A stretch of 63,199 bases of DNA from Candidatus Woesearchaeota archaeon (GTDB lineage Archaea > Nanobdellota > Nanobdellia > Woesearchaeales > WJKR01): positions 1-63,199 of the forward strand of contig WJKR01000037.1 in assembly GCA_014729015.1 (NCBI GenBank). The letters are read 5' to 3'. Both the position numbers and the translations under genes were made by a program. Shown in pieces: positions 35,701 to 50,939 of this stretch; within the stretch, counting starts at the first letter, position 1, and each line of letters begins with the position of its first letter. The notes under the pieces are model-generated. The model was not told the origin of the DNA, ran no database searches, and worked only from the letters and a program-made list of their open reading frames with translations.

Positions 35701-37953
35701 AAAGAGCTCACCATCGACGCCACCGGCCCAGAGATGCTCGACATCCTCACCAGCGACCCCACCTGCTCGCTCGACACCATCAAGGCCAAGTTCTTCAGCA
35801 ACGCGACCATCATCGGCCTCGACGCGTACAACTACTCCATCACGAACAGCAGCGGCGAGCTCACGCCCTGGACCAAGGTCAGCACGAAGTCAGCCCTCAC
35901 CATCACGGACCACGCAGAACTCATTGCAGGCAACGAGTACACGATCAAGGCACAAGCCATCGACGACTTCGACAGGAGCAGCGGCGCCCTCACCAAGACC
36001 GTCACCGCGCAACCAGCAACGCACGAGAACTGCGACGACGATTCCCCGACCGCGGCCATCATCCTACAAGAGGTGTACGGAGGCGTCGAAGCCACGGTCA
36101 TCTGCGAAGACGACGGGAGCGGCTGCAGCGACCACTACGAATTCTTCCACCTGACCAACCAATTAACAGCGACGTGCAAGGACGGCACGTACGAATCACT
36201 CGCCTACGAAGACCAACCCGTGACGCTCCGACGATCAGGGACTGCGTGCGCCATCGTCTACGACCACGCAGGCAACAACGACACCGCCAGCACGAAGATC
36301 GAAGTCGTGCGGCACTGCAGTAACGGCATCCAAGACCCGCAAGAAGACGGCGTGGATTGCGGCGGCGTGTGCCCGACGAGCTGCGAAGACTGCAGTAACG
36401 GCCGGCAAGACGCGTTCGAAGACGGCGTGGATTGCGGCGGCGTGTGCCCGACGAGCTGCGAAGCCATCGAGAACTGCGGCAACGGCTGGGTCGACCCAGG
36501 AGAGGAGTGTGACGGCACCCCGACCGTGGGCTGCGACCAGTTCGGGTTCGCCGGCGGCACGGTCACCTGCAATCATTGCAAGATCGACACCACGACGTGC
36601 ACGGCACCCACGACAGGCGTGTGCGGCGACGGCGTCGTCAACCCGGGAGAGCAATGCGACGGCACCGTGCCCGCAGGAGTGACATGCGAGGACTTCGGCA
36701 TGACCAGCGGCACGCTCAGCTGCGATGCGTGCAAGATATCCACCACGAGCTGCGAAGGCCTCCCCGGCACGTGCGGCGACGGCACCATCGGGCCGGGCGA
36801 GAGCTGCGAAGAGGACGCTATGCACGACCTCACCTGCGAGGACTTCGGGCTCGTCAGCGGCACCCTCGCCTGCGCTGCTTGCGAGCTCAACACGAGCAAC
36901 TGTCTGAACGGTTACTGCGGCGACGACGAGATCGACGAGGGAGAGACGTGCGACGGCCTCGCCTGGGGCGACATCACCAGCTGCGAGGACCTCTCCACAG
37001 ATTTCATCGGCGGCAAGCCGGTCTGCGGCAATGACTGCCACTTCGACACCTCCGCCTGCGCGCCGGGAGAAGCGACGATCAACGAGACCACGACGTGCCT
37101 CGACGATAGCGACTGCCCGACCGACGAGGCGTGCGAGGCGGGCGTCTGCCAACCGATCGCCGGGCCGGAACCAGGACCGGGACCGATGCCTCCTCCTGAG
37201 AAGGACGACACGGTCGCCCTCGCGCTCCTCATCGCAGGGGCCGCACTGCTGCTCGGCGGCGCAGGCTACCTGGCGTACACCACGTTCATCAACCCGCCTC
37301 GGCCAGCCACGCCGAAGACGCCGCCCCAACCGCAGCTCAGCCCCGAAGAGGCGGAACGACGGCAAGCGGCGAAGCTCGCCGAGGAGAAAGAGCGGTTAGC
37401 GTTGCAGAAACAGGCGCGCGCAAAGGCGCAGAAGGCGAAGGCCAAGGAGCGGCGGGCGTTGCTGTCCAGCTTCAACCGGGACGAGCTCGCGGGCAAGGCG
37501 AAGGGCCGAGCGAAGCCTTCCTTGAGGCAGCCAACCCCTCCGAAGCAAGCGCAGGAGCCCGCGGGGAAACCGTCTGCGCAGCAACGGCCGAAGGCAAGGG
37601 ATGACGTGTTCACCGGCCTCGACCGGCTCAACAAGCAGCCCGTCAAGAAGACGAACGAGCAGGTGTTCGATCAGCTCTCACAGCTCTCAGGATCGTCCAA
37701 GAACAAGCTCAAATCCACGATCAACAAAGGCAACCCGACGGCTGACGAGCTCGCCGAGCTGTTCCAGGAAGCGGAGAAGAAGGACGTCACGCCCAAGGCG
37801 GTGACCCCGGTGTTCCAGCACTTCATCGACAAGGGAAAACTCGACCACGCGACGGTGCATGAGACCGTGCACAAGCTCCACGAGCAGGACAAGCTCACCG
37901 CCAACCAGAAGGAGAAGATTCTGGGTGACATCACGCCGGGGGAGGGGGCATGA
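32797..37953 (+). CDS. giant type-I membrane surface protein (1718 aa) with Ig-like and Cys-rich repeats and a cytoplasmic Lys/Ala/Glu tail
   Basis: - I prefer the ATG at 32797 (SD agaggt 7 nt upstream) over the TTG at 32773.
- Sec signal MRTLPVILVILFLFPVVLSA.
- Repeated C.DDG.GC.D.Y...D.AGN Ig-like modules.
- DCGGVCPTSC and CGDG..PGE.CDG repeats.
- TM helix VALALLIAGAALLLGGAGYLAY, followed by a ~220-aa charged tail. Confidence 0.85.
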   Translation: MRTLPVILVILFLFPVVLSASYQDQQVITYTIKDDITHPQPNISVSFGEQPVCILDAELSFEDASQSDPPSIICDETPCRQEYNFSIGDDNYLIDADYVFYAKARDNDDNTIKIYVHFTIDSPEQHVYLVSPVNPYVNNTEDDFGMAKKQSFNLRVRLEQALGRPAEGCRWAYIESLPGSYASGEELFNNLAQEKAHFSSRSSDGYYFNDTDFSLAELAQGVLHEFIAVCKESEGRYSRSRMFLGWDDDKPVFDEEKTRILPDHPGIQGNDHAYIDDQNHAVATINVTTDDRVLCNVTNVRYPPLYGAKYRDYGDDDKYFWLSLGRFTITNPEAEDFNTTHLFARISFELLRTETPSVNPPYNYTFNVTCENMAGLTNSLLLDASINFSNTIGLEQVSPKSQHYTDTNDVDFEFTTDVEAVCNFFFDDDDETSDLDETITEGTYHYALTENDLDDGSYDYEFTCHLAGYTPQSKSGTISVDTEAPPAPDINTTDTKVCNNNTPELEIEFGTAGNVDRYDYRITSDNGYSATGSDTNGEVTHEISGHPIAWEETFTITANATDAAGNTGSPAQHTLTYLPYTCDGKKPSITTSKNYTSTGMDIAITCSDDGTGCTDRYDYSILPPDSTCDDADYGQHEQNGGAVAITGDQLLCYRVTDKAGNNETGSTTVMTSFPIEIVEPSFGIANTTTFNITIKTERSASCKFDFNHGNPGDLEMMYNDFPWDLDETDDTNKYRYEGFNPVSQGASICEGEPACAVSIIVICNVPPRYYYTPFMIGYDTTPPRIDAYASPATLREYGNLEAELIVESDDGTYCTYQDIEGEDAGNFGTLGPDQDSSYQQHHQASIGPFSPPTGNNDSYNVTYNVTCKNQAGIIVNDVATVTIAPTDEIGVTITTPSEHRARSVTLNVTTVLPARCNYTFNPKQPSTPLAPDDEDKRHAATESFAADGEYDLDVECVSLNHLYKGGASKELTIDATGPEMLDILTSDPTCSLDTIKAKFFSNATIIGLDAYNYSITNSSGELTPWTKVSTKSALTITDHAELIAGNEYTIKAQAIDDFDRSSGALTKTVTAQPATHENCDDDSPTAAIILQEVYGGVEATVICEDDGSGCSDHYEFFHLTNQLTATCKDGTYESLAYEDQPVTLRRSGTACAIVYDHAGNNDTASTKIEVVRHCSNGIQDPQEDGVDCGGVCPTSCEDCSNGRQDAFEDGVDCGGVCPTSCEAIENCGNGWVDPGEECDGTPTVGCDQFGFAGGTVTCNHCKIDTTTCTAPTTGVCGDGVVNPGEQCDGTVPAGVTCEDFGMTSGTLSCDACKISTTSCEGLPGTCGDGTIGPGESCEEDAMHDLTCEDFGLVSGTLACAACELNTSNCLNGYCGDDEIDEGETCDGLAWGDITSCEDLSTDFIGGKPVCGNDCHFDTSACAPGEATINETTTCLDDSDCPTDEACEAGVCQPIAGPEPGPGPMPPPEKDDTVALALLIAGAALLLGGAGYLAYTTFINPPRPATPKTPPQPQLSPEEAERRQAAKLAEEKERLALQKQARAKAQKAKAKERRALLSSFNRDELAGKAKGRAKPSLRQPTPPKQAQEPAGKPSAQQRPKARDDVFTGLDRLNKQPVKKTNEQVFDQLSQLSGSSKNKLKSTINKGNPTADELAELFQEAEKKDVTPKAVTPVFQHFIDKGKLDHATVHETVHKLHEQDKLTANQKEKILGDITPGEGA
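36316..36465 (+). repeat. 75-nt in-frame tandem repeat (2 copies) encoding CSNG.QD..EDGVDCGGVCPTSCE
   Basis: The copies lie at 36316-36390 and 36391-36465. The distal ~48 nt (gaagacggcgtggattgcggcggcgtgtgcccgacgagctgcgaag) are identical in both. Confidence 0.95.
36475..37059 (+). repeat. four ~145-nt coding repeats: CG(N/D)G...(P/E)GE.C(D/E).. cysteine-rich modules
   Basis: Units start at 36475, 36622, 36772 and 36916. They read CGNGWVDPGEECDG, CGDGVVNPGEQCDG, CGDGTIGPGESCEE and CGDDEIDEGETCDG, each followed by C.DFG...G...C..C...T..C. They resemble the Myxococcus cysteine-rich repeat. Confidence 0.8.
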
Positions 37954-38483
37954 CGAGGCGTGCCCAGGTACAGCAGGTGTTCGTGTACCTCTCAGCGATA
38001 CTCGTCATCGGGTTCGTCGTGCTCTTCGGCTACCGCATGGTCGACAAGATCCTCGACCAGCAGTGCGAGGTGAGCGAGCATTCCTTCATGGGCTCGCTCG
38101 AGGACGCCATCGACCGTAACGTGCACGCGCAGTCCGTGACTGACGTCGCGGTGCCCGCGCCGTGCAAGTACCAGCAGTTGTGCTTCGTGGACGCACGAGT
38201 AGTGGAAGGCTCCAGCACTTTCAACAACATCGATAATAGCTTGAAAGCGACGAACGCGGTCATGTGGGGAAATGCAATGGATGACATCGAATGGAACGTC
38301 TACCTCCTCATCCCGGGCAAGGAGACCAAGCCGATCATGTTCGACGACCGCATCACCACGACCGAGAAACCGATCGGCACAGCCGAGAAAGCTCACCTCT
38401 GCATCAACGCATCCTTGGGAGAATTCGTGTTCTGGGTGAAAGGAAAAGGCGACGGCGTATACCTCTACGCTGACGAGCGGTGA
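37950..38483 (+). CDS. type IV pilin-like protein 1 (class III signal peptide)
   Basis: The N-terminus is MTRRAQVQQVFVYLSAILVIGFVVLF. The ATG overlaps the stop of the upstream giant gene (ATGA). Confidence 0.7.
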   Translation: MTRRAQVQQVFVYLSAILVIGFVVLFGYRMVDKILDQQCEVSEHSFMGSLEDAIDRNVHAQSVTDVAVPAPCKYQQLCFVDARVVEGSSTFNNIDNSLKATNAVMWGNAMDDIEWNVYLLIPGKETKPIMFDDRITTTEKPIGTAEKAHLCINASLGEFVFWVKGKGDGVYLYADER

Positions 38484-39499
38484 TATCCGTGGCCCGACGA
38501 GCGCAACTCGGCATACAGTTCAACTGGCTCTTCGTACTCATCATCGGCGCCATCATCCTCGCGTTCTTCATCACCCTGATCAACAACCAGCAAGAAAAGG
38601 CGGGCGCCGAGGAGGCGACGGATCTCGTTGAGAGCCTCGATACTGTTTTTACCGTCATCAACACCGAACCGGACACGTACGACGCGTTCCCCATCCCGGA
38701 CGCGGAGGTCGAGTTCACGTGCGAGCCGGGACTGTCGCAATACTACATCCAAGGAGCGGGACCGATCGACACGACGTACGACCCCATCTTCACGCCCGAC
38801 GTGCTCAGGGGGGACACCATCATGAGCTGGACGATGACATGGGGCATCCCCTTCGAGGTCGCCGTGCTCACCTTCCTCGCCAACGACCGCACATTGTTCG
38901 TGTTCGCCAGCGATGAGCAGGACGGCTTCGTCAAGGCCATGGCGGACGAGCTCCCGGAACAGTTCCCCCGACAAACCACCAGTGTCAGCAACATCGGCGG
39001 CGCGCTGCTCGAGCGCGGCTACTCGCGCTACGTGGTCATCACGGACAAAGCTGTGAAGAGCATGGTGCCCACCGAGCTGTGGGACGTCACCTATGTCCGT
39101 CACATCAACCCCCTGGGCAATGGCATCGACTCGTACGGTCAGATAAAGTTCTATGACGCATCGACACGTGAGGTCACAGAGCCGTACTTCACCGAGGCGC
39201 TGGCGTGGGGAGCGGTCTTCGCCCAAGACGCCGACGCGTACCGGTGCGCCGCCAACAAGACGCTCATCCACCTCCAGGTCATCAGCACCATCCTCGAGCG
39301 ACGCGCGCGCGCCATCGCCCAGGAGCTTGGCGCATTGAGCTTTTGCTATGACAACTTCCTGCTCGTCGCCGATTCCTTTCAGGACTTCGCGGACGACCCC
39401 TCCTTCGACAAAGCACGGACCTTCCACAGCCATCGACAGACCATCGAGAACTACCAGAAAATCTCCTTGAGAGGATACAGATGCCCGGACCTGTACTGA
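38480..39499 (+). CDS. type IV pilin-like protein 2
   Basis: The N-terminus is ..ARRAQLGIQFNWLFVLIIGAIILAFFI. There is a GTGA overlap with the previous gene. Confidence 0.7.
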   Translation: MISVARRAQLGIQFNWLFVLIIGAIILAFFITLINNQQEKAGAEEATDLVESLDTVFTVINTEPDTYDAFPIPDAEVEFTCEPGLSQYYIQGAGPIDTTYDPIFTPDVLRGDTIMSWTMTWGIPFEVAVLTFLANDRTLFVFASDEQDGFVKAMADELPEQFPRQTTSVSNIGGALLERGYSRYVVITDKAVKSMVPTELWDVTYVRHINPLGNGIDSYGQIKFYDASTREVTEPYFTEALAWGAVFAQDADAYRCAANKTLIHLQVISTILERRARAIAQELGALSFCYDNFLLVADSFQDFADDPSFDKARTFHSHRQTIENYQKISLRGYRCPDLY

Positions 39500-39999
39500 G
39501 ACGAGGACAATTGCAGATAGGGGAGAGCATGATCGTCATCATACTCATCCTCATCATCGGCGTCTTCGCATTGGTGTTCTTCGCGAACATGACCAAGGCC
39601 AAATACCAAGTCCGGCTCGGGCAGTACGAGGACCTCAACGCCGTGGAAACAGCGCACATCGTGAACAGCCTGTACGAGCTGCGCTGCGCCAAGACGGGCG
39701 CCACAGAGGTGTGCGTGGACAAGCACAAAGCATTGGCGTTCGCGCAACTGCAACAAGACGAACCCGAACTAGTGAATGATTACTACTTCGACCTGTTCCG
39801 TTACTCCAGGATCGAGCTGCAGGAGATCTATCCAGAAGGGCACAATTACACCTTGTACGAGGTGAACGCGTCCAGCCAAGGACAGGTCGTCAAGGCGTTA
39901 GTCATGCCCGTCGCGATCTACAACAACTCCGCCGGCACCAACAGCTTCGGCATCCTCAGCGTCGAGCGGTTCTACACCAGGAGGTCGTCCACCACGTGA
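39481..39999 (+). CDS. type IV pilin-like protein 3
   Basis: The N-terminus is VLRRGQLQIGESMIVIILILIIGVFALVFF. It overlaps the previous gene by 19 nt. Confidence 0.7.
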   Translation: MPGPVLRRGQLQIGESMIVIILILIIGVFALVFFANMTKAKYQVRLGQYEDLNAVETAHIVNSLYELRCAKTGATEVCVDKHKALAFAQLQQDEPELVNDYYFDLFRYSRIELQEIYPEGHNYTLYEVNASSQGQVVKALVMPVAIYNNSAGTNSFGILSVERFYTRRSSTT

Positions 40000-40505
40000 G
40001 ACGCGCGCAGATAGAGATAATGGGGCTTGTCATGGTCGTCGTCCTGGTCACCATAGGCATATTCTTCAGCGTCGCGCTTAAGAAGCCGACGCCTGACCGC
40101 ACCCCTTTGGAGGTGTACGGCAACGAAAAACTAGCGAACAACTTCCTGATCACCCTGCTGGAGTCGCAGACCGCGTGCGGGCCGAAGGTGCGCGACGTCG
40201 CCGTCGACTGCGTCCGCGACGCGCAGACGGGCCAAACAGGACGCTACGCCTGTGATGGGAAGCAATCTTGCGATTACTTGGCTACTATCGCTAACCACAC
40301 CCTTGACAAGACGCTGAAACGCTGGAACTACCGCTACAACCTCACGTTCACCTACACGGCCGGGGATACCATACAGCTCTTCAGCCCCCTGACCAACGGC
40401 GACTGCACGCCCCAACAGAAGCAGACCGCACCCGGCATACAACCCATCTCCTTGTTCCGCGTCGCGCCGGGAAAAGCGATGCTGACGCTGAGAATCTGCG
40501 ACTGA
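39996..40505 (+). CDS. type IV pilin-like protein 4
   Basis: The N-terminus is MRRAQIEIMGLVMVVVLVTIGIFF. There is a GTGA overlap, and an SD aggaggt lies 9 nt upstream. Confidence 0.7.
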   Translation: MRRAQIEIMGLVMVVVLVTIGIFFSVALKKPTPDRTPLEVYGNEKLANNFLITLLESQTACGPKVRDVAVDCVRDAQTGQTGRYACDGKQSCDYLATIANHTLDKTLKRWNYRYNLTFTYTAGDTIQLFSPLTNGDCTPQQKQTAPGIQPISLFRVAPGKAMLTLRICD

Positions 40506-40512
40506 CCGCAAC

Positions 40513-40522
40513 ATTTAAATAT
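40513..40522 (+). promoter_or_regulatory. internal TATA box ahead of the mini-pilin triplet
   Basis: catttaaata sits in the only sizeable gap of the upstream half of the array. It is followed by SD tgaggtga 8 nt before the ATG at 40567. Confidence 0.5.
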
Positions 40523-40566
40523 TCTCTTCTCGTGGTTTGGACAATAATCGTGAGGTGAAAAACTCC

Positions 40567-40824
40567 ATGAAACAAGGCCAAGGGCTCTCCATGAACGTCA
40601 TCATCATCGCAGCCATATCCCTGTTGGTGTTAGTAATCATCAGCGTCTTGGTGCTCAGAGCGGGCGGCGACGTCAGTACCGGCACGGGGTGCGAAGGCAT
40701 CGGTGGACAATGCGTGCCGTCAGAATCAGGATGTCCTGACGGCTTCCGCCATGACGTCGTCCATAATTGCAAAGGGCGCGAGAACGAGGGCAAGATTTGC
40801 TGTATCCCAGAGAACTTCGAGTGA
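40567..40824 (+). CDS. mini pilin-like protein A (85 aa) with 6-Cys module
   Basis: The sequence is MKQGQGLSMNVIIIAAISLLVLVIISVLVL, then C-x6-C-x6-C-x10-C-x8-CC. I prefer the ATG at 40567 over the TTG at 40537. Confidence 0.7.
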   Translation: MKQGQGLSMNVIIIAAISLLVLVIISVLVLRAGGDVSTGTGCEGIGGQCVPSESGCPDGFRHDVVHNCKGRENEGKICCIPENFE

Positions 40825-40829
40825 ATTAC

Positions 40830-41087
40830 ATGAACGACAAACGAGGCGTCGAGCTCTCCTTTAACCTCATCATCGTGGCTATCGTCGCCCTGTTGGTCCT
40901 CGTCGTGGTCGTCTACCTCATCGCCAACCAGTCAGGCAACGTCAGGCAAGGAACCCTGTGCGTCAAGCACGGCGGGCGATGCGTTGAGAAGCTGGCGGAT
41001 TGCTCCACATACCAGATCCAGAACACCGATGCCACGAAGCCGCTCTGCAAACCCGGCGTGTGCTGCAGCCTTGTTCCTAAGGAGTAA
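40830..41087 (+). CDS. mini pilin-like protein B (85 aa) with 6-Cys module
   Basis: The sequence is MNDKRGVELSFNLIIVAIVALLVLVVVVYL, then C-x6-C-x6-C-x13-C-x4-CC. I trimmed it from track ORF 40767. Confidence 0.7.
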   Translation: MNDKRGVELSFNLIIVAIVALLVLVVVVYLIANQSGNVRQGTLCVKHGGRCVEKLADCSTYQIQNTDATKPLCKPGVCCSLVPKE

Positions 41088-41099
41088 CGAGGGAATTGC

Positions 41100-41651
41100 A
41101 TGGACAAGAAAGGCCAGACGTTCAAGTATGTTCTGGAAGCGGTCGTGTTCTTAGCGTTGCTCTTCGTCATCCTCCACTTCGTCTTCGGTATCGGCGCCTA
41201 TGGCAGCTCATTGACCAAGTGCGAGGCGACCAAGGGCACGTGCAGGATCGTCTGCGACCCGGGCGAGACCGAGCTCGACCACTCATGCAGGCAGCGACGA
41301 GGAGGCCTGCTCAGCGGCGAAGAGGAGCAAGCTGTAGAGAAGGTGTGCTGCTTCGACGCCGCCGACGTGCTCGGCGTCTCCTCGGACAGCGTTGAGGCGC
41401 CGGAAGACCTGAGCACGCTCGAGACCAAGGCAGAGGTGCAGCCGTACATCAACGCGCTCACCACCCACATCTGGGAGGAAGCAGCAGCGCATTCAGGACT
41501 ATCGGTCGACGACGTGCGCCAGGCCAACAAGGACGATAACGGCGACCCGAACCCGTTCACCCTCAAGCAGGACTACCACTACCCCGGCTATGCTGAGGAC
41601 CAGGAAGAACTCAACCGCCTCACAAACCACCGGGACCAGCTCTCCTCGTGA
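41100..41651 (+). CDS. pilin-like protein C (183 aa) with related 6-Cys module and acidic C-terminal extension
   Basis: The sequence is MDKKGQTFKYVLEAVVFLALLFVIL, then C-x6-C-x3-C-x10-C-x19-CC. Confidence 0.7.
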   Translation: MDKKGQTFKYVLEAVVFLALLFVILHFVFGIGAYGSSLTKCEATKGTCRIVCDPGETELDHSCRQRRGGLLSGEEEQAVEKVCCFDAADVLGVSSDSVEAPEDLSTLETKAEVQPYINALTTHIWEEAAAHSGLSVDDVRQANKDDNGDPNPFTLKQDYHYPGYAEDQEELNRLTNHRDQLSS

Positions 41652-41674
41652 ACAGGCGTCCCCCCCAATAGGAA

Positions 41675-41683
41675 CTTTTAAAA
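41675..41683 (+). promoter_or_regulatory. internal TATA box in pilin array
   Basis: ttttaaaaa lies in the 76-nt gap after 41651, about 45 nt upstream of the micro-ORF ATG at 41728. Confidence 0.4.
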
Positions 41684-41727
41684 ACTCGCCGTGCTGAGGA
41701 AGACATCGACATAGCAGGTGCTCTACC

Positions 41728-41841
41728 ATGAATGACAGGCGCGGATGGGAGATGACCAGGACTGTCATCATCATCGCAGGCATCGCCCTCCTCATCCTCG
41801 TCATCATCTTCGTGCAACAAGCATACAACAACATCGGCTGA
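41728..41841 (+). CDS. 37-aa micro-ORF consisting almost only of a class III-like signal/helix (hand-translated)
   Basis: The product is MNDRRGWEMTRTVIIIAGIALLILVIIFVQQAYNNIG. An SD-like gcaggtg lies 7 nt upstream. It fills the gap between neighbouring genes exactly. Confidence 0.5.
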   Translation: MNDRRGWEMTRTVIIIAGIALLILVIIFVQQAYNNIG

Positions 41842-41847
41842 TCAGGC

Positions 41848-43227
41848 ATGGACAAGCAAGGATTATGGGCGCTCACCGTCTTCGGCAAGTACATCTTAGC
41901 GCTCGCCTCGCTCATCGCCATCGTCGCCTTCATGTACACCCTCTTCGCCGACATCGAAGACCAATCGGTCGAGCAGGCGTGCAGGACGTCCATCATCACC
42001 AGAGGAGAGTTCAAATTCGGCGTGTTCAACAAGAAGGAGACGGCCAGCCTGCTCAAATTTGACAACATCTACCCTGTCCAGTGCAAGACGCAATCGGTCA
42101 TCGTCCCCGTGGACGAGCCGCCGAGGACCGCCCACGCCTCGGAAGTGCAGGAGCTCATCATGGACGACGTCGCCGACCTCATGGCCAAGTGCTGGTGGAT
42201 GTTCGCCCAAGGCCAGTACCACGACATCCTCGACGACCCGGGCAAGGACGACCAGCTCTGCCATGTGTGCTACTCCTTCACCATCGACCCCGACCTGGAC
42301 GACTACGAGCCTATCGATGTCGAAGAAGACTTCCTACCCTTCCTGTCCACGCACCCGTACCGGCCAGGACTCCTGCAAGGAGGGAACGCCCTCATCGGCG
42401 GCATCGATGACTACGAGTACCAACCGCAAGACGTCTTCGAAAGCACGAGGAAGACGAGGAGGCTGAACGAGGAACGGCTCCTCAACAGCCGCGCCGTGCT
42501 CAGAGGCGGCGTCGCGGACTTCTCAGGACTCTTCACCGAGGACCAACCATCACTGGAAAAGCTGCAACAACACCTCTCCTCGCTCGCCGGCGACGGGCTC
42601 ACCGTGGTCTACGTCATCGTACCCAGCCTGCCAGAACGCACGTTCGAGGACGACACCGACCTCGGCTTCAGGATCATCGACGAATGGCAGCTCGGCATCG
42701 ACGACAGGGAGAACGCCGCCGTCTTCCTCTTCTCGTTGAACAACGGCATCCTCCACTACGCGACCCAGTTCGGCGCGGACGCCGTCCTGCCCGATTACAT
42801 CCTCCAAGGGTTGTTCGAACCAACAGTAGGACCGTACATGGCTGTGAAGAAACCCAAGACGGCGATCCTCGAGTTCTCACAATCACTGAGCGACCTCGTC
42901 AGTGAGTACGGCGAGGAGAACGTCAAGCAAACACTGCTGTTCCAGCGCAGCTACGTCGCCTACATCACCGGCGGCAAGCAAGGAGCGACCTCGCCAGTAG
43001 CGCCGAAAGACACCGCAAAAGGAGCGATCAAGTACGACAAGGACGACGTGGAGACGATAGAGCAAGGGAAGGCGTACGCTATTTCCTACGTCTCGACGAA
43101 GTGGCGCGGCTGCACCTTCTTAGTCTCCTTCTGCAAGAGCAGTAATCCCAACGCGATAGGGCTCTCCACGCACGACAGCCTCTTCTCGCAAGGAGCGATC
43201 TGCAACATGTACACGGAGGACGGGTGA
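41848..43227 (+). CDS. pilin-like protein with TPM (TLP18.3/Psb32/MOLO-1)-like domain
   Basis: The N-terminus is MDKQGLWALTVFGKYILALASLIAIVAF. The segment GGVADFSGLF...GLTVVYVIVPSLP...IIDEWQLGIDDRENAAVFLFSLNNGILHYATQFGADAVLPDYI matches the TPM-domain pattern. Confidence 0.65.
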   Translation: MDKQGLWALTVFGKYILALASLIAIVAFMYTLFADIEDQSVEQACRTSIITRGEFKFGVFNKKETASLLKFDNIYPVQCKTQSVIVPVDEPPRTAHASEVQELIMDDVADLMAKCWWMFAQGQYHDILDDPGKDDQLCHVCYSFTIDPDLDDYEPIDVEEDFLPFLSTHPYRPGLLQGGNALIGGIDDYEYQPQDVFESTRKTRRLNEERLLNSRAVLRGGVADFSGLFTEDQPSLEKLQQHLSSLAGDGLTVVYVIVPSLPERTFEDDTDLGFRIIDEWQLGIDDRENAAVFLFSLNNGILHYATQFGADAVLPDYILQGLFEPTVGPYMAVKKPKTAILEFSQSLSDLVSEYGEENVKQTLLFQRSYVAYITGGKQGATSPVAPKDTAKGAIKYDKDDVETIEQGKAYAISYVSTKWRGCTFLVSFCKSSNPNAIGLSTHDSLFSQGAICNMYTEDG

Positions 43228-44271: not shown

Positions 44272-44726
44272 ACAAACAAGGAGGAACATTCTCGACACTC
44301 TCAAAGGCCATCCTCGCCTTTACGCTACTCGTCGTGCTCTTATTCGTCGCCATCGACCCGTTCAGCAACGTCGCTAACTTCTTCATCAAACGAGCAGCGC
44401 TGGAAGACGCCGATTATGACCGGGACGGCAAGCTCGACGAGATCGGCGGCAGGTCCTATGACGAGTCGCCCTGCGTGTACGGCGAAGCGGTCGTCGAGAT
44501 AGCTGGCAAGTCAGAATACCTGTACGAGCTCGCCAACAACGGCGATTGCAACTTCCCAGAGATGGCCGCGCAAGGCGTCACGCTCGTCAAGATGATCGAC
44601 ACCTCGACCAACCCGCCACGAGAGGTCTGCATCTATCCCTATAAGGTGTGCCAACAAAACCTCGAAGCGTACCACGACAAGCTCATCGCGGAAGAGAAGG
44701 CGAGGAGAGAAGCAGAGAAAGGATAA
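44268..44726 (+). CDS. type IV pilin-like protein with Ca-binding-loop-like motif
   Basis: The N-terminus is MNKQGGTFSTLSKAILAFTLLVVLLFV. A DYDRDGKLDE (DxDxDG) loop is present. There is an ATGA overlap. Confidence 0.65.
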   Translation: MNKQGGTFSTLSKAILAFTLLVVLLFVAIDPFSNVANFFIKRAALEDADYDRDGKLDEIGGRSYDESPCVYGEAVVEIAGKSEYLYELANNGDCNFPEMAAQGVTLVKMIDTSTNPPREVCIYPYKVCQQNLEAYHDKLIAEEKARREAEKG

Positions 44727-44732: not shown

Positions 44733-45977
44733 ATGCATCACTACCGACAAAAAAGAGGTTCGACACTACTCCTGGAAGTCATCATCGGCATCGTGATATT
44801 CGTCGTGCTCTTCTTCTCCACCTTCAAAGTTGCCAAGGATATCCTCGTACAAGAAGAAGCATGGCAGGAATCCTACCTGGAATTCGGCGAGCAGCTCGCA
44901 CAGATCGGCGGCGGCACGGTCGGCGAAGGCGGGAACTACCTGCTCAAGCTCAACGACGACTCGGCAGTCATCGGCCTCAACCCTGTCATGGACAGGGACT
45001 ACTACGACGTCCTCGGCGTCCAGCAGGATGCCACGAAGAAGGACATTAAAGAAGCCTATGACCAGCTCGTCGATATCTACGACCCGGAAGATCCGGCGAG
45101 CCGGCAGCCGTTAGCAGAGCTCGAGAAAGCGTACGACGTCCTCAGCGACCAAGAACGGAAGGAAGACTATGACGCCAGCGAGGCGTTCACCCACCGCAAC
45201 GGTCGGTTCGGAGACGGCGACTTCCACATCGTCTTCGCCAGAAAGAACATTGCCTTCGACTACGACCTCGTCAGCTTTCAACGGCCGGCGGTATGCGCCG
45301 CAGACCAAGCATGCCTCTGCCTGTGCAACGACCCGAAACTCATCGAGGTCACCGAGGAATACGCTGATGAACAAGCCATAAACATGGGCCATCCGACGCC
45401 GTACGACGCGGCATCGCTCTCGAAGCATCACGATGACTACGCCAGGGACGTCGCCAGCGCGAGGCAGCGAGCGATCGAATGCGGCCGCACCGAGTGCGTC
45501 GAGCTCGGAAGCTTCTTCTTCCACTCACCCACATCCTCGAAGCATCACTCCAGGCTCTACCAACCATCGACGGACACGCAGATGATCACACCCTACATGT
45601 ACGAGAACGGGTTCGCCATCGCCCGATCAGAAGAGAAGAACGAGCAACGGCAAGACCTTGACGAAAGAAGAAGGATCGAACTATGCTCCATGCACGAATG
45701 GCTCGGCTACGCCGACCAGCTCCCCCCCGCAGTGCCGCTCGTCATGCGCGTCTACCGGCCGGTGACGGTCGGCGGTAATCCGACCGTGGCGGTATGCATC
45801 CACTCGGACTGCCTGGTAGAACTGCAGGAAGCGGTCGAGGAAGACTACGAGGACAACCGACTACCGATCTCGCCCGAAGAAGAGCTCCGATACCTCAACA
45901 CAAAAGATTCCTGGACAAAAAAAGACAGTGAGCGAGCCGCAGAGCTCGAAGCGCTCATCGAAGCATCCCGAGAGTGA
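44733..45977 (+). CDS. pilin-like protein carrying a J-domain-like segment without HPD
   Basis: The N-terminus is RQKRGSTLLLEVIIGIVIFVVLFF. Residues 88-147 read DYYDVLGVQQDATKKDIKEAYDQLVDIYDPEDP...LEKAYDVLSDQERKEDYD. Confidence 0.65.
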   Translation: MHHYRQKRGSTLLLEVIIGIVIFVVLFFSTFKVAKDILVQEEAWQESYLEFGEQLAQIGGGTVGEGGNYLLKLNDDSAVIGLNPVMDRDYYDVLGVQQDATKKDIKEAYDQLVDIYDPEDPASRQPLAELEKAYDVLSDQERKEDYDASEAFTHRNGRFGDGDFHIVFARKNIAFDYDLVSFQRPAVCAADQACLCLCNDPKLIEVTEEYADEQAINMGHPTPYDAASLSKHHDDYARDVASARQRAIECGRTECVELGSFFFHSPTSSKHHSRLYQPSTDTQMITPYMYENGFAIARSEEKNEQRQDLDERRRIELCSMHEWLGYADQLPPAVPLVMRVYRPVTVGGNPTVAVCIHSDCLVELQEAVEEDYEDNRLPISPEEELRYLNTKDSWTKKDSERAAELEALIEASRE

Positions 45978-45983
45978 AGCCCC

Positions 45984-46862
45984 ATGACGCTCTTCTCTGA
46001 CAGACGAGGAAGCAACAGGATATACTTGCTCCTCATCTCTCTCACCATCACCGCGATCGTGCTGGTCATGACCTTCAACGTCGCGATCAAGCACTCCCGC
46101 GGCAAGTCCTATCAGCTCAACTTCTACGCGCAGGACATCTCACTCCTGCTCGAATCAGTGCAGGCGGTGCCCGGCGATATCACGCTCTCCTATCATTTAC
46201 AAGAAGGATTCGTCGTCCTCCTCCGAGAAGAAGAGCTCGAAGTGGTGTACAAGCCGTCAGGACTGTCCAAGACCAAGCACTACCACGTCCTCCCAGGCAT
46301 GCGCGTACAACCACAAACGGTCGAGGAATTCCTCACCATCACCAAGCGGGACGACCAGCTCGGCATCACCACTGAGCCCCCATCGGCACGACAAGGATGC
46401 CCGCCGCTCATAGGCCTCGACCCGTCAACGCTGGATATCACCGTCACCACTGAGCCCCCATCGGCGACCAGTCCGATCGGCACCGACCAGCTCGCCCGCA
46501 TCAAGGAGGGCTTCGAGTTCCTCGTCGCCAGCGAGCAAGGAACGGCTACTCCGCAAAACGCCGTCTCACTCGCCATCACCATCACCGCGCGACCATCCAC
46601 GGACGGGCTCAACTCGCTCTTCGTCGAACGACCCGAAGCAAGAGGAGACATGGAGAACAACTACCAACACTTCTTCTGCGCATTCCTCGAACACCTCGAC
46701 GACGCAGATATCACCGTGAGGGAGTCGCTCGTCCTCAGCCCCACTGACGACTATGAGTTCAAGCTTATCTTCGCCGTCACCCCGGACAACGCAGTCCTCG
46801 CAAACAGGCATACGTACGCCGACGCCTTCATCAACGCACTGACCGAGGAGGTGAGCCCATGA
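45984..46862 (+). CDS. type IV pilin-like protein
   Basis: The N-terminus is SDRRGSNRIYLLLISLTITAIVLVM. An internal (I/V)TTEPPSA direct repeat lies 26 codons apart (22-nt identical DNA at 46366 and 46444). Confidence 0.65.
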   Translation: MTLFSDRRGSNRIYLLLISLTITAIVLVMTFNVAIKHSRGKSYQLNFYAQDISLLLESVQAVPGDITLSYHLQEGFVVLLREEELEVVYKPSGLSKTKHYHVLPGMRVQPQTVEEFLTITKRDDQLGITTEPPSARQGCPPLIGLDPSTLDITVTTEPPSATSPIGTDQLARIKEGFEFLVASEQGTATPQNAVSLAITITARPSTDGLNSLFVERPEARGDMENNYQHFFCAFLEHLDDADITVRESLVLSPTDDYEFKLIFAVTPDNAVLANRHTYADAFINALTEEVSP

Positions 46863-47338
46863 ACAACAAGGGAGAAGGATTCCTCCTCAGCCTCGAGATC
46901 ACGTTCATGATTGCCACGCTGTTCTTCCTCATCTTCGGCATCGTCATGCTCCAGACAGTGATCGGCTTCGCCAAGGCAGAGAACAAGTACGCCGACGAGA
47001 TACGCTACCAGGCCTATGCCTACCAGCTCGTCAACGCACCCGCATGCTTCGCGCACGGACAACCAAACAGGGCAGAACAATACGTCATCGACCTGGACAA
47101 AGTCGACCGGGCGACGCTCGAAGCGTGCCTGCCGCAGAACGCCGCGCACGTACCGCTCCCCGTCTCCCTCACGATCAGGAATTACGAGACCCGCACCAAG
47201 ATGACCGTGAACACCACGTCATGGGACCCCGCCGCGCAACCACGATACGCCAAGGGCTTCCCCGTCACAATCAAAGATGGGACTGCCATGGAAGAAGGCC
47301 GTATCTCCTTCCTCGGCGTCGGAGAGAGGATACAATGA
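46859..47338 (+). CDS. type IV pilin-like protein
   Basis: The N-terminus is MNNKGEGFLLSLEITFMIATLFFLIF. There is an ATGA overlap. Confidence 0.65.
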   Translation: MNNKGEGFLLSLEITFMIATLFFLIFGIVMLQTVIGFAKAENKYADEIRYQAYAYQLVNAPACFAHGQPNRAEQYVIDLDKVDRATLEACLPQNAAHVPLPVSLTIRNYETRTKMTVNTTSWDPAAQPRYAKGFPVTIKDGTAMEEGRISFLGVGERIQ

Positions 47339-47865
47339 CCACGATATGGAAGAGCAAGAAAGGGTTCATGGACAAGTTCATCGACTTCATCGTCGCCCTC
47401 ATCATCTTCGCTCTCACCGTCGCCCTCATCACCATCATCTTCCTCGCCAACAACGACACCAAGCAGTCACGGCTCGCCTATGAGGACACGATGGAGAAGG
47501 TCCATGCGTCCCGCGTCATCAACGACTTCACCGACTTCGCCAAGAGAGACTGGTCAACCGGCAAGCCCATCGGCGGCCCCACCGCCACCCTGCTCCGACA
47601 CTACGAAGAGCAAGCGCAACGAGAACTCATCAAAGAACAGATACAAGAATACTTCGGCAGCTACTACGCCGGCTACAAGGTTCTCATCACCTACGACGAC
47701 GAATATGATACTATCATCCAGTACACCACGAACGAACGAGGAGGAGGACCGGTCATCGCTGCCACCGCCGTCCCCCTACAAGACGGCGTCGCCGTCATCC
47801 GCCTCATCACGTTCGACGCCGCACGTGCGGCAGCCATCTATCCAACACAAGTGCCATTTAAGTGA
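47335..47865 (+). CDS. type IV pilin-like protein
   Basis: The N-terminus is WKSKKGFMDKFIDFIVALIIFALTVALITIIF. I trimmed it from track ORF 47044. There is an ATGA overlap. Confidence 0.65.
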   Translation: MTTIWKSKKGFMDKFIDFIVALIIFALTVALITIIFLANNDTKQSRLAYEDTMEKVHASRVINDFTDFAKRDWSTGKPIGGPTATLLRHYEEQAQRELIKEQIQEYFGSYYAGYKVLITYDDEYDTIIQYTTNERGGGPVIAATAVPLQDGVAVIRLITFDAARAAAIYPTQVPFK

Positions 47866-50800
47866 ACACCATGCGAGCCAAGCATCTCAACAACAAGAAG
47901 GGCGTCATCCAGAACAGCCTCATCGCTATCGGCTTCCTCATCGCCGTGACCATCGTCGCCACCAGCTACCTCATAGCGAAGTCCTCCCTGGACGAGAAGC
48001 CCATAGGCATGGCGCAGTCAGCAGTCCTCCAGATAGCGCACGAAGGCGACAAGGCAGTCGCGTACCTCGATCAGGCAGTATCGATGGCGGAGAACACGGC
48101 GGTCAAGGACTTCACCCAACAAGGAGGCATGGTCATGGACTTCGAAGACGGCACCTATCTCTGCGGCTCGTTCATGAACAGGACGTACCTCTACACCCAA
48201 GGACAGGATTGTATCCCCAACCCTTCAAAGACCTTCCAATACTTCTTCGACGCAGCGCTGTTCACCTCATTATCAGCGCACAAGACATATCCTTACCCCT
48301 CATTCATCACCACCATCGTCGATGATAACGACAAAACCGTCATTACTGGCCAAGCGACCGAGCCGTTCACCTTCACATTCGGCGGAGGCGGCAAGGCGGC
48401 CTTCAAGCTGATGGGCAAAGAACCGTTCATCCCCGACTACCTCGGCGCCCAGCAACCAGTCACGCTCAACTACTTCAACAGGGGCGGCACGCCGGTGAGT
48501 TACATCGTCGTTCACTACACCGTCACGGACACCGCGATGCGAGCCATCGACGTACTCCGACGGCGAGGGCTCAGCTATCACTACGTCATTGACCATGACG
48601 GCACCGTCTACCAGACAGTCCCGGAATCAGGCTCTGCCCAGCACGCGGGTTGTCCCACGGCGAGCTACGGCAGGAGCTACTGCAAGCGGACGAACATGAA
48701 CCGGCCTTCCATCGGCATCAGCTTCGCCAACATGGGCTACAAGACCAGCGGGTGCGACGATGAATACCAGGACTGGTACCAGGACAGCGACGTCTGCTGG
48801 GAACCGTACACGCAAAGACAGCTCGACAGCTTCGTCAACCTCGTCGCAGACATCACCCAACGACACCCCGCGCTCGTAGAAGACGGCAGGTTCAAGGAGA
48901 GCCAGATGATCATGCACTCGGACGTCGCCACGGTCAAAGTAGACCCCGGACCGGACTTCACCCGCCAACAAGAAGACCTTATCCAACGCATCAACGACAA
49001 GATGATCACCACGACTCGTACGCCGACGAAGACTACCACGACGGCCAACGAAGCCACCATCGTCGCACCGACGCCCGAGCGGGAAGCGCGGCTCGAGGAC
49101 TACGAGCCACACATAGCCGAGTACGGCGAAACATACCACGTCGACGACGCGCTCATCAAGGCCGTCATCCTCCAATCATCAGGAGCGCGACCGAACCACA
49201 AGGGCCCGGAAGGCAACCTCGGACTCATGCAACTCCTCCCAATCTCCACCACCGGCAGGTCGATTAACCACGAGTTCTGCGTCGACCGGTGCGGCTTCTC
49301 AGCAACGTACGACGAAGCGGAATACTACGACCCGGAGAAGAACATCTGCTGCGGCACGGCGCTGCTCGCAGGCCTGGCCAAGCAGCAACCACTGCCGCGG
49401 GTCTGCTGCGAACAGGACGACGTCGCGGACTGCCCGGAGAACGAGGACTACCAGCAACCCTACCACGTCGCCGCGCAGCACTACCTCCTCAAGACATGCG
49501 ACGGCTGCAAGCACTGCGTCGACGAGGACTACGTCGCAGACGTAATGCGACTCTACGAGTACTACGGCGGCACCCACGGCCAGTTCACCGTGGATGAGGA
49601 CGCGGCGTTCGAAGCCACCTATACCATCCCGCTCTCATTCACCACCGTCGCGGACTTCGACCTCTCCTCGTACGACGAAATCGCGGCCTTCGCGAGGAGC
49701 ATCAGCGACGACTGCACCGATTATCCCCGGCGCTGCGTCCAAGAACACGTCACCAGCCACAACGCGCACGCGACGCATTACCGCGCAGACACGGCGTGCG
49801 AGGATAACGAACTCCTCCAATCATTCGTCCAACACCTCGACGCCTGCTCCTACACCCAGGACCGGCAGCCATGCTCCTTCACCCTCCCAACAACGAGCAT
49901 CACCGAACCATTCATCATCAGAATCAACGGGAGCGGCGTCTGGGAAGAGACGCTCAAGAAGACGTTGCTCGGTACCCGAATCCTCGCCACACGACCCATC
50001 ATCAGACGCGAAGGGCTTGACTACGCTGACTTCGGCAGCGGCCCGGAAAGGACGAACATCACCATCTACTTCCGAGAGGACAGGGACGGCGAGCAACTCC
50101 TCGACTTCAAGTTCAACGGGAAATTCCATGACCGGTCACAGGACAACGATCGACCACTCAACATAACGACGTTCACCTTCTTCCGCGACGACGAAGACAA
50201 CCTGATCTTCTCCTATGAGGAACTGCCGGGGAGCGTGCAAGCGCCCATCCTCTCATACCTGTTCTGCATGGAACCACTCCGGCAAACAAGCACCGCCAAC
50301 CACAACTTGTCATTCGCACTGCTCCTCCAAGACCGCGTCCCGCCGCCTGTCACCGGCCTTCAAGCAGCCTACACCCCCGCCCTGCAAGTCTTCGAGCTCC
50401 AATGGACCCCGGTCACGCAGTACGACGACGGCAAGCAGGTCCCGGACATCGCGGCCTACAAGGTCTACTGCAGCGAGCAGCCGTTCACGCAGCACCAACC
50501 GGTGCCGCCCAGCGCTTACGTCGCGAGCGTCAAGCGATCGAACAAGGGGTTCTTCCCCCCGGCAGCCTACCAGCAACAAGGCGTCATGTCATTCCCGCTC
50601 GAACGCTGCGGCGGCAAGCCCATCAGCAACTACATCGACGACCAGACGCAGACCATGTCCCTCCTGTACGTCGCGGTCACCGCGGTGGACGGCGCAGGTC
50701 AGTACAACAAGACGTATCCTTCAGTGACGCTCAGCGCTGACCTGACCCAGGCGCTCCAGTTCCCGCCAAACATGCCGGAACAGGCGAATGAGGTCATCGA

Positions 50801-50939
50801 ACCCTCGCTCGGCCGGTTCACCTCCTTCCACCAGGAGATTCCTGACGAGTACCAGCTAGTGATAGACATCCTCGGAAGGTATTACAGCGGCTACTTCCCC
50901 ATGCCCCTGTTGGAAGAATCGCCGGACCCACCCGCATAA
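47862..50939 (+). CDS. pilin-like N-terminus fused to peptidoglycan amidase (Amidase_2), SLT-like and FN3-like domains (1025 aa)
   Basis: - The N-terminus is NNKKGVIQNSLIAIGFLIAVTIV.
- Amidase_2 motifs: YIVVHYTV, YHYVIDHDGTVYQ, AQHAG, PSIGISFAN, IMHSDV..KVDPGPDF (~48480-48960).
- SLT-like segment: ALIKAVILQSSGARP..GNLGLMQLLP...DPEKNICCGTALLAGL (~49108-49570).
- FN3-like segment: ELQWTPV...YKVYC...LYVAVTAVDGAGQ (~50335-50710). Confidence 0.8.
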   Translation: MNTMRAKHLNNKKGVIQNSLIAIGFLIAVTIVATSYLIAKSSLDEKPIGMAQSAVLQIAHEGDKAVAYLDQAVSMAENTAVKDFTQQGGMVMDFEDGTYLCGSFMNRTYLYTQGQDCIPNPSKTFQYFFDAALFTSLSAHKTYPYPSFITTIVDDNDKTVITGQATEPFTFTFGGGGKAAFKLMGKEPFIPDYLGAQQPVTLNYFNRGGTPVSYIVVHYTVTDTAMRAIDVLRRRGLSYHYVIDHDGTVYQTVPESGSAQHAGCPTASYGRSYCKRTNMNRPSIGISFANMGYKTSGCDDEYQDWYQDSDVCWEPYTQRQLDSFVNLVADITQRHPALVEDGRFKESQMIMHSDVATVKVDPGPDFTRQQEDLIQRINDKMITTTRTPTKTTTTANEATIVAPTPEREARLEDYEPHIAEYGETYHVDDALIKAVILQSSGARPNHKGPEGNLGLMQLLPISTTGRSINHEFCVDRCGFSATYDEAEYYDPEKNICCGTALLAGLAKQQPLPRVCCEQDDVADCPENEDYQQPYHVAAQHYLLKTCDGCKHCVDEDYVADVMRLYEYYGGTHGQFTVDEDAAFEATYTIPLSFTTVADFDLSSYDEIAAFARSISDDCTDYPRRCVQEHVTSHNAHATHYRADTACEDNELLQSFVQHLDACSYTQDRQPCSFTLPTTSITEPFIIRINGSGVWEETLKKTLLGTRILATRPIIRREGLDYADFGSGPERTNITIYFREDRDGEQLLDFKFNGKFHDRSQDNDRPLNITTFTFFRDDEDNLIFSYEELPGSVQAPILSYLFCMEPLRQTSTANHNLSFALLLQDRVPPPVTGLQAAYTPALQVFELQWTPVTQYDDGKQVPDIAAYKVYCSEQPFTQHQPVPPSAYVASVKRSNKGFFPPAAYQQQGVMSFPLERCGGKPISNYIDDQTQTMSLLYVAVTAVDGAGQYNKTYPSVTLSADLTQALQFPPNMPEQANEVIEPSLGRFTSFHQEIPDEYQLVIDILGRYYSGYFPMPLLEESPDPPA

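Follow-up and report, generated by a model that had tools for sequence, protein, structure and literature searches.

A conserved array of genes for pilin-like proteins, ending in a modular cell-wall hydrolase gene, in Candidatus Woesearchaeota

A contig of a Candidatus Woesearchaeota archaeon, of which 63,199 bp were analysed (this whole stretch is referred to as the window), carries 17 consecutive open reading frames (ORFs) on the + strand at positions 37950-50939, here named g1 to g17. All 17 products begin with a basic leader of 3-13 residues, which is followed by Gly or Ala and then by a hydrophobic segment, and the last gene encodes a giant protein with cell-wall hydrolase domains. After trimming of the start codons, all 17 ORFs were present where a first-pass annotation of this DNA had placed them, and the N-termini quoted in that annotation were all correct. 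Its description of the products as mutually dissimilar did not hold, since g5, g6 and g7 are paralogues. The balance of the evidence tilts slightly towards a set of type-IV-filament-like subunits which, with assembly machinery encoded elsewhere, would present a polymorphic cell-wall hydrolase to bacteria.

The spacings from g1 to g17 are -4, -19, -4, 61, 5, 12, 76, 6, 7, 5, -4, 6, 6, -4, -4 and -4 nt, negative values denoting overlaps. The tight overlaps and short gaps and the two exceptional gaps of 61 and 76 nt were as first described; the 19-nt overlap of g2 and g3 had been missed and also occurs in four of the related loci introduced below (L002, L003, L010 and L012). Both long gaps hold a TATA-like element ~46 nt 5′ of an ATG, as had been proposed, and these elements are kept in relatives. 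The first, ATTTAAATA (40513-40521, + strand), lies 46 nt 5′ of the g5 ATG and is followed by a Shine-Dalgarno-like site, GAGGTG. The 9-mer ATTTAAATA was identical 5′ of g5 in 10 of 10 loci with a G+C content (GC) of 39-60%, again with GAGGTG ahead of the start codon. The second, TTTTAAAAA (41674-41682, + strand), lies 46 nt 5′ of the g8 ATG, and a box of the form [AT]TTTAAA[AT]A was found 5′ of g8 in eight of the nine loci examined. These are real genes, organised as a block of giant protein genes with g1-g4, a promoter followed by g5-g7, and a promoter followed by g8-g17.

All genes of the array lie on the + strand, and in the N-termini given here a slash marks the proposed cleavage site. The g1 product (37950-38483; 177 aa, MTRRA/QVQQ) is encoded from a start that overlaps the stop of an upstream gene for a 1726-aa protein by 4 nt, so that the transcription unit probably begins further upstream. 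Orthologues of g1 in L002, L003, L010, L012, L016 and L017 show the pattern [KR][GA]/Q, with the exception of L017, in which the gene call starts past the motif. The products of g2 (38480-39499; 339 aa, ARRA/QLGIQFNW), g3 (39481-39999; 172 aa, RRG/QLQIGES) and g4 (39996-40505; 169 aa, MRRA/QIEIMG) follow the same design. Gln at +1 and Glu at +6 are invariant among seven orthologues of g3, and Gln at +1 and Glu at +3 are invariant in g4. A single weak NCBIfam match of g3 to the N-terminus of the ComGC pilin (E 0.046) was far below the cutoff. Behind the first TATA-like element, g5 (40567-40824) encodes a protein of 85 aa with the N-terminus MKQG/QGLSMNVIIIAAISLLVLVIISVLVLRAGG and a six-cysteine head. 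Its paralogue g6 (40830-41087; blastp 1e-10) likewise encodes 85 aa (DKRG/VELSFN), and g7 (41100-41651; 183 aa) combines a g5-like N-terminal part with a C-terminal extension, the length of which varies from 112 to 655 aa in relatives.

Behind the second element, g8 (41728-41841) is a micro-ORF of 37 aa comprising only leader and helix (DRRG/WEMTRTVIIIAG). A counterpart of 35-48 aa and of like design was found at the matching position in L001-L004, L007, L010, L012 and L017. The g9 product (41848-43227; 459 aa) joins a pilin-like N-terminus to a TPM domain (Pfam TPM_phosphatase, 2.1e-9), and TPM was also found in L001, L010, L012, L014 and L016. A second micro-ORF, g10 (43235-43381; 48 aa, HKQG/QEGD followed by a helix), has a counterpart of 36-64 aa in every locus covering the position. 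It is followed by g11 (43387-44271; 294 aa, RKQG/GMFG; L001 orthologue, 1e-15), g12 (44268-44726; 152 aa, MNKQG/GTFS) and g13 (44733-45977; 414 aa, QKRG/STLL), the last of which shows a J-like domain at residues 89-147 (Pfam DnaJ, 1.5e-12) in which the HPD motif reads DPE. No DnaJ match was recorded with Pfam for the g13 orthologues of L001, L010 and L012, and the J-like domain is a lineage-specific, probably non-chaperone insert. The array ends with g14 (45984-46862; 292 aa, DRRG/SNRI), g15 (46859-47338; 159 aa, NNKG/EGFL), g16 (47335-47865; 176 aa, SKKG/FMDK) and g17 (47862-50939; 1025 aa), the terminal modular subunit, in which the N-terminus NKKG/VIQN is followed by a helix.

For assessment of the N-terminal design, a relaxed rule was applied that required Lys or Arg at -2 or -3, a Gly or Ala at -1 no later than residue 22, and a 15-residue hydrophobic stretch free of charged residues that begins within 10 residues. 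The rule was satisfied by 17 of 17 array genes, against a background of 69 matches among 3449 start sites (~2%; ORFs of at least 30 aa, six frames), most of which were nested starts of array genes or antisense ORFs. Beyond the array, the rule was satisfied by two full-length genes that are plausibly real (25699-28875 and, weakly, 17923-23916), and a third + strand match lay at internal starts in SecY. The array-wide occurrence of the motif is far beyond chance. In four genomes, a basic residue followed by Gly or Ala is kept in all 17 families, in proteins that are 22-37% identical, and L004 and L007, which are more distant, keep the motif as well. In the window, g1-g5, g7 and g10 have Gln at +1; in the g1-g5 families this residue is invariant, and Gly and Ala are interchangeable at -1. 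A nearby Glu occupies +3 in g4 and +6 in g3, and g5 has none; the DUF361 motif (QxSxExxxL) as such is absent. The arrangement of leader, small residue and hydrophobic helix, to which the first-pass annotation had drawn attention, is real, and selection maintains it in 17 gene families and in 11 loci or more.

The related loci were obtained by several searches. A search with g17 gave two full-length homologues, one of them on a 93-kb contig of GCA_054039615.1 (L001, GC 43%), on which g5 to g17 are followed by the gene of an RPA-like single-stranded DNA-binding protein (RPA) in retained order, both micro-ORFs included. A scan of genome contigs with a two-sequence alignment of g14 yielded no match; an eight-sequence g14 alignment, used as a profile against the same kind of contigs, yielded L002 and L003. 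L002 belongs to a Zodletone Woesearchaeota metagenome-assembled genome (MAG) and L003 lies on a 277-kb contig, and both hold the complete array. The contigs of g5-family members gave more arrays (L004-L006, L007-L009, L010, L012 and L013, L014, L016, and L017). The contig of L003 (CAZKVR010000001.1, 277 kb) is labelled 'uncultured Methanosarcinales archaeon'; its gene content fits the Woesearchaeota loci, and the label is probably a taxonomic error.

The order g5 to g17 is common to at least 11 independent loci with GC values of 39-60%. Conservation in relatives, on which the first proposal had been made to depend, was observed: at least 10 other loci share the gene order and both micro-ORFs, as well as the g2/g3 overlap and the two promoters. 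The RPA neighbour 3′ of the array recurs in L001, L003, L010 and L012. In seven loci, g5 is preceded by g1-g4 and at least one giant secreted protein, and in L004 and L007 unrelated housekeeping genes (Sec61-beta, NAC) stand in the place of g1-g4 and the giants. The conserved core is g5-g17, that is 13 genes with two promoters, and g1-g4 and the giants form an accessory module. The possibility that all 17 genes are one evolutionary unit was rejected because L004 and L007 lack g1-g4 ahead of g5. Both the g5 family and the g14 family are rare, with ~30-60 sequence clusters in multi-billion-protein collections, and a scan of metagenome contigs gave one contig of 1.8 kb only. Two loci showed deviating arrangements. 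In L014, the array is split at 2724-5530, behind g7 and ahead of g9, by what looks like an insertion of four unrelated genes, which encode a DUF6036 protein, a TrmB/MarR-like regulator, an alpha/beta hydrolase and a product of unknown kind. In L015, a short array at 5093-7565 contains two g5-like and three more small genes and is followed by a tRNA synthetase gene on the opposite strand, indicating that the small-pilin module can occur without the long g8-g17 part nearby.

The terminal gene of the array is always giant and always encodes cell-wall hydrolase domains, the kinds of which differ among the loci. The g17 protein of the window consists of a carrier module of ~130-180 aa, an Amidase_2 domain (residues 209-364; Pfam 8e-27), an SLT domain (residues 418-508; Pfam 6e-9) and a C-terminal part of ~500 aa that is conserved among orthologues. 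Profile matches in the PDB were to AmpDh2, the closest solved relative of the amidase, and to EmtA and MltC for SLT. The Zn ligands H218, H352 and D361 of the amidase, as well as Y239 and K359, are conserved in all orthologues, and the AmpD-type Glu (GIE) is Ser or Ala. T7 lysozyme also lacks the AmpD-type Glu, yet is active; inactivity of the g17 amidase for lack of this residue was rejected, as the Tyr/Lys/Zn set of the T7-lysozyme type is intact.

Both Amidase_2 and SLT were found in the terminal proteins of the window, L001 and L012 with Pfam and in that of L003 by signature motifs. Amidase_2 stands alone in L010, in the terminal protein of which an SLT domain was undetected with Pfam. The terminal protein of L004 (1519 aa) carries Peptidase_M23 with a faint SLT match, and that of L007 (1470 aa) carries NlpC/P60 with a C-terminal domain resembling VgrG3 of the type VI secretion system (T6SS). 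The N-terminal module of ~130-180 residues is homologous across terminal proteins with different enzymes, including those of L004 and L007 (blastp 1e-6 to 1e-10). A carrier that stays constant while its wall-cleaving modules are exchanged follows the design of modular pilins (PMC8179133) and of polymorphic effectors. The suggestion that the array includes tip or effector proteins gains strong support from this polymorphic peptidoglycan-hydrolase terminal subunit.

Woesearchaeota are not known to have murein or another peptidoglycan wall, so that the simplest substrate of the hydrolases is a foreign wall, namely that of a bacterium. A peptidoglycan-walled bacterium is hence the likely partner, a point absent from the first-pass annotation. 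The enzymes might instead remodel a peptidoglycan-like wall of the archaeon itself, with the pilin-like proteins as a wall-spanning apparatus, and bacterial envelope-spanning machines, which often carry a dedicated lytic transglycosylase, offer a precedent. We consider this extremely unlikely, given that no peptidoglycan wall is known in this group and that four unrelated hydrolase types are swapped on one carrier, which look like diversification against foreign targets and not like housekeeping; Mur or other wall-synthesis genes were not seen in the examined neighbourhoods either.

The layout of the terminal protein also bears on a possible role in transfer. An N-terminal transmembrane helix with two peptidoglycan-hydrolase domains is the typical layout of Gram-positive type IV secretion system (T4SS) hydrolases, and the terminal proteins combine such a helix with two different domains (SLT and amidase, M23 and SLT, or NlpC/P60 and a lysozyme-like domain), preceded by many small membrane proteins. 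The array would then be a conjugation or T4SS-like, or a Ced/Ted-like, apparatus for transfer of DNA or cytoplasm, and its hydrolase would correspond to VirB1, PrgK, CwlT or TraG. This appears highly improbable. Judged by Pfam domains, neither the window nor the 10-kb flanks at any locus encode a VirB4/HerA-type or VirD4-type ATPase, a relaxase or a polytopic VirB6-like protein. The array has a chromosomal location with housekeeping neighbours on both sides, the ribosomal operon and SecY upstream and RPA downstream, and its N-termini are pilin-like, not VirB2-like.

A second product with a relation to cell-wall hydrolases is g14. Its family comprises 31 clusters (50% identity) among 1.84 billion representatives. 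At ~25% identity, all but two of 21 members (19 of 21) retain the pattern [KR][KR][GA], and the two exceptions look like truncated gene calls. An AF2 model built from 21 sequences had a mean predicted local distance difference test (pLDDT) score of 89.4 and showed a helix at residues 7-61 (55 residues), a beta sheet at 66-129 and an alpha/beta domain at 150-287. A helix of ~53 residues followed by a sheet is a trademark of pilins (PMC8179133, PMC10628169). In Foldseek searches of the PDB and BFVD libraries, the globular part (66-287) repeatedly matched the fold of Amidase_3 (MurNAc-L-Ala amidase), with AmiC2, CwlV, PlyPSA, Rv3717 and many phage 'cell wall hydrolase' models among the matches (probability ~1, E 1e-4 to 1e-2, TM-score 0.3-0.5). 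Since the alignment of the g14 family shows no conserved His or Glu metal ligands, the modelled head may be a peptidoglycan-binding or pseudo-enzyme module.

These phage endolysin folds could also point to an origin from a virus or mobile element, of which a tail or entry module bearing lysins would be left in the chromosome, as Amidase_2, SLT, M23 and NlpC/P60 are common in phage lysins and tape-measure proteins and one weak SLT match was to a tape-measure protein. Such an origin is already largely refuted and retains an almost negligible probability. In profile scans, the g14 and g5 families were absent from 2.9 million IMG/VR viral contigs, PHROGs gave no match for nine of ten products and a single weak one to a family of unknown function, genes for an integrase, capsid or terminase are absent nearby, GC is uniform across the locus, and synteny with RPA is kept in several genomes.

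The g5 family comprises 64 clusters (90% identity), all of 76-116 aa and all unannotated. Among 52 aligned members, the leader ranges from 3 to ~20 residues and is varied in sequence, and position -1 is Gly or Ala in 100%. Positions +1 to +27 (QGLSMNVIIIAAIsLLVLVIisVLVLRAGG) are almost invariant, six Cys are invariant, and the head is otherwise variable. A second or third small g5 paralogue was present in all relatives. The AF2 model of g5 (52 sequences; pLDDT 82) showed a helix at residues 5-39, starting exactly at the proposed +1, and a three-stranded head. On account of the invariant helix, the variable disulfide-bonded head, the smallest size, the conserved promoter of its own and the tandem paralogues, g5 would be the bulk subunit and looks like a candidate major pilin. 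The Cys spacing of the head (residues ~42-79), C-x6-C-x6-C-x11-C-x8-CC, resembles a beta-defensin pattern. Four of 52 family members weakly matched defensin-like Pfam families (2.9e-4 at best), and a further weak match was to a tick carboxypeptidase inhibitor (E 0.085). Both modelled products, g5 and g14, thus show the long N-terminal helix with a globular, beta-rich head that was to be expected from the first proposal.

As had been reported, no assembly machinery is encoded in cis: a T2SSE-type ATPase, FlaJ/TadC and an A24 peptidase were absent from the ORFs of the window that were scanned outside the ribosomal operon. Archaeal pilin genes often sit apart from the genes of the ATPase and TadC, and one machinery can serve several pilin sets (PMC4858521), so that the lack of machinery in cis is compatible with archaeal biology. 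Epd-like 'System 1' clusters have been reported in DPANN archaea (bioRxiv 10.64898/2026.04.22.720090).

Several results weigh against the reading as a filament subunit set. Pilin or class III models of Pfam and NCBIfam, the hidden Markov models (HMMs) with which the proposal was to be checked, matched none of the 17 products, and those of Pfam matched none of the 52 g5-family members at E values up to 10. Nor did scans with Pfam, NCBIfam and PHROGs place any product in a defence or phage structural family; the domains recognised were TPM, the J-like domain, Amidase_2 and SLT. A FlaFind-type core pattern, which demands hydrophobic residues straight after the cut, fitted 0 of 17 proposed sites. 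It fails because a semi-polar spacer separates the Gly or Ala from the hydrophobic core, which mostly starts 4-10 residues past the putative cut site and not at +1, with 3-9 semi-polar residues between. Foldseek searches of the g5 and g14 models, also among the checks first suggested, returned no solved pilin, pseudopilin or archaellin; g5 had no significant match at all, and pilins were absent from the PDB matches of both. Profiles of the g3, g4 and g5 families found no solved pilin among PDB sequences. With Pfam, neither the window nor the related loci, including 10 kb of flanking DNA, showed a T2SSE/FlaI ATPase, a TadC/FlaJ platform or an A24 peptidase. The J-like domain of g13 would be odd on the outer face of the membrane, where it is predicted to lie. 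In g17 of the window, the catalytic Glu of SLT is replaced by Ser ('QSS', residues ~436-441), and judged by this residue the SLT module is probably inactive; the Glu ('HES') is retained in L001, L003, L012 and P0003.

The main alternative is that the products are unprocessed signal-anchor (type II) proteins which form a membrane-held envelope complex for attack or adhesion, without a filament, and that the hydrolase acts on contacting bacteria. The missing pilin HMM and fold matches, the semi-polar spacer, the lack of assembly machinery in cis at any locus and the large, multi-domain nature of several products all fit this alternative. A plain anchor leaves unexplained, however, why a Gly or Ala after basic residues is strictly conserved in 17 families at 25-35% identity beside a freely varying leader, why Gln at +1 is invariant in g1-g5, why the helix of g5 is near-invariant across genomes with GC values of 39-60%, and why helix-only micro-ORFs occur at fixed positions. 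A constrained small residue between a free leader and a constrained helix is predicted by a peptidase site and not by a plain signal anchor. Epd pilins of Methanococcus, for which processing by EppA was shown experimentally, have the sites RA/QI and KG/QV (PMC4371748), and the spacer layout bears a resemblance, by analogy, to Flp/Epd-type 'G/xxxxE' leaders rather than to PibD-type leaders. Unprocessed anchors are therefore considered rather unlikely. The assignment of class III signals stands as far as the basic leader, the Gly or Ala and the helix are kept under selection, and lacks recognition of the products by any HMM or by the FlaFind-type pattern. In the same way, the proposed pilus or pseudopilus subunit set is supported by the conserved motif and the helix-plus-head models and finds no counterpart among pilin HMMs or solved pilins. 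We class the array as one that would function in the manner of type IV filament subunits, the terminal one being modular and equipped with enzyme domains, and regard its products as putative members of the pilin family.

For the preferred reading, a filament subunit set with a hydrolase-bearing end, we infer cleavage, polymerisation, machinery acting in trans and a bacterial target, as follows. Each product would be inserted in the membrane with its N-terminus inside, and a class III (prepilin-type) peptidase encoded elsewhere would cut after the conserved Gly or Ala, the retained hydrophobic helix serving as assembly scaffold. The bulk subunit would be g5 with its paralogues g6 and g7, transcribed from a conserved promoter of their own, and g8-g17, under the second promoter, would be low-abundance pilin-like subunits that prime or cap the filament. 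As a modular pilin-like carrier, g17 would show peptidoglycan hydrolases at the distal end, and g1-g4 with the upstream giant secreted proteins would resemble a set of minor pilins plus a PilY1-type adhesin. On contact with a bacterium, the hydrolase module might open the sacculus locally, leading to tight attachment, to access to nutrients or cytoplasm, or to lysis. A bolder version, which we regard as possible but doubtful, is that this Woesearchaeota lineage builds a 'wall-piercing' type IV filament, with a disulfide-knotted pilin bearing a defensin-like head and an interchangeable peptidoglycan-hydrolase tip, in order to latch onto and open the walls of bacterial hosts or prey. If true, this filament would be the first described molecular apparatus for parasitism or predation of an archaeon on a bacterium, and the swapping of hydrolases would be the trace of an arms race against the wall chemistries of bacteria.

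No description of this operon was found in the literature searched, in agreement with the first-pass annotation, which had not recognised the gene order as a described system, and recent censuses of archaeal type IV filament systems describe no such array. Among known systems, the Epd pili of Methanococcus maripaludis share the short basic leader, the sites RA/Q and KG/Q and Gln at +1 (PMC4371748), features matched by g1-g5, g7 and g10, and in Epd pili several pilin genes feed one filament and can lie apart from the genes of ATPase and platform (PMC4858521). In contrast to Epd, no sequence or HMM similarity of the array products to Epd pilins or to DUF361/Class_IIIsignal was detected, and the array is without Glu at +5, comprises 13-17 subunit genes with enzymes of up to 1500 aa, and has a six-cysteine head on its small subunit. 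Modular pilins such as PilB and PilC of Streptococcus sanguinis, in which a pilin module carries a fused functional one for presumed display at the tip (PMC8179133), share their apparent layout with g17, g9 and g13. The array differs from them in grafting peptidoglycan hydrolases, which are unmentioned in that survey (PMC8179133), in a host archaeon not known to have peptidoglycan. The position of g1-g4 beside a giant secreted protein recalls PilY1 tip complexes, that is, four core minor pilins with the PilY1 adhesin. In the bindosome (Bas) of Sulfolobus, binding proteins and proteases with class III signals depend on type IV pilus-like assembly and on small pilin-like proteins (PMC2910488); Bas, however, has basEF (ATPase and platform) in its own locus and a sugar-binding cargo, and the gene content and order of the array are unrelated.

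Two further comparisons concern attack and transfer machines of bacteria. The Tad-like 'Kil' apparatus of predatory bacteria is a machine of the type IV filament family for contact-dependent attack, and PrgK, CwlT and TraG combine an N-terminal transmembrane helix with two different wall-cleaving domains, as does g17. Compared with these, the array is archaeal, has no ATPases in cis and no VirB4/VirD4, and its hydrolase itself bears the pilin-like N-terminus.

Woesearchaeota are abundant, uncultured and host-dependent DPANN archaea with reduced genomes. A 'large lytic murein transglycosylase', a large SLT (GH23) protein, has been described from Woesearchaeota MAGs (AR20 and Lake A bins) and was interpreted as a hint that these archaea attack bacteria (PMC9723730, PMC12352652), and g17 and its relatives most likely are this family. 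The published accounts treated the protein as a stand-alone enzyme, which had prompted the speculation on attacks against bacteria, and left its pilin-like N-terminus, operon position, amidase module and module swapping unmentioned. What is new is that this protein forms the final, pilin-like subunit encoded by a conserved operon of 13-17 genes with promoters of its own, and that lineages exchange the wall-cleaving module on a constant carrier. The speculation is thereby turned into a concrete, testable model of a surface apparatus aimed at peptidoglycan-walled partners. The g5 and g14 families are marker genes for finding such organisms, and the array supplies candidate antigens for imaging, candidate enzymes for biochemistry and a new, HMM-invisible family of putative archaeal pilins.

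Upstream of the array, three genes on the + strand encode giant Cys-rich proteins with Sec-type signals and almost no Pfam domains (17923-23916, 1997 aa; 28946-32776, 1276 aa; 32773-37953, 1726 aa). The 1726-aa protein, secreted and without a Pfam domain, has a C-terminal transmembrane anchor and a Lys-rich tail and carries repeated CGDG...PGE.CD motifs. Its gene is translationally coupled to g1, and it is a possible adhesin partner of g1-g4; a giant protein is also encoded 5′ of g1 in L002, L003, L010, L013, L016 and L017. Between the first two giants, a gene at 25699-28875 (+ strand) encodes a protein of 1058 aa with the N-terminus MGKKRWHSLKA/QATLFFILGIVLLAV and no Pfam or NCBIfam match. 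It has its own TATA-like box, ATTTTTAAA, at ~25667-25675, and its N-terminus (KA/QATLFFIL) fits the classical archaeal class III pattern better than that of any array gene. The protein may be an 18th pilin-like member of this surface island.

On the + strand of the window, the order of genes is primase, an archaeal ribosomal-protein operon (~2.5-14.9 kb), SecY, an EMC3/YidC-like insertase, a 33-kb block of surface-protein genes that includes the array, and RPA. With these neighbours (ribosomal operon, SecY and RPA) and a GC of ~58% that is even over the locus, the locus is chromosomal and archaeal. A halophile or a member of the Nanohaloarchaeota was rejected as its source, since records of the window proteins name Woesearchaeota. 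Scans for tRNA genes and Rfam families found none in the window. Three ORFs of 490-535 aa without a Pfam match were observed at 57403-58875 (- strand), 58968-60575 (+ strand) and 60677-62188 (+ strand). An ABC-2 transporter and a helix-turn-helix regulator are encoded 3′ of RPA on the opposite strand. The sole minus-strand gene within the surface-protein block (24987-25625) encodes a protein with an NTP_transf_2/Polbeta nucleotidyltransferase domain, possibly an MNT-type antitoxin-like protein.

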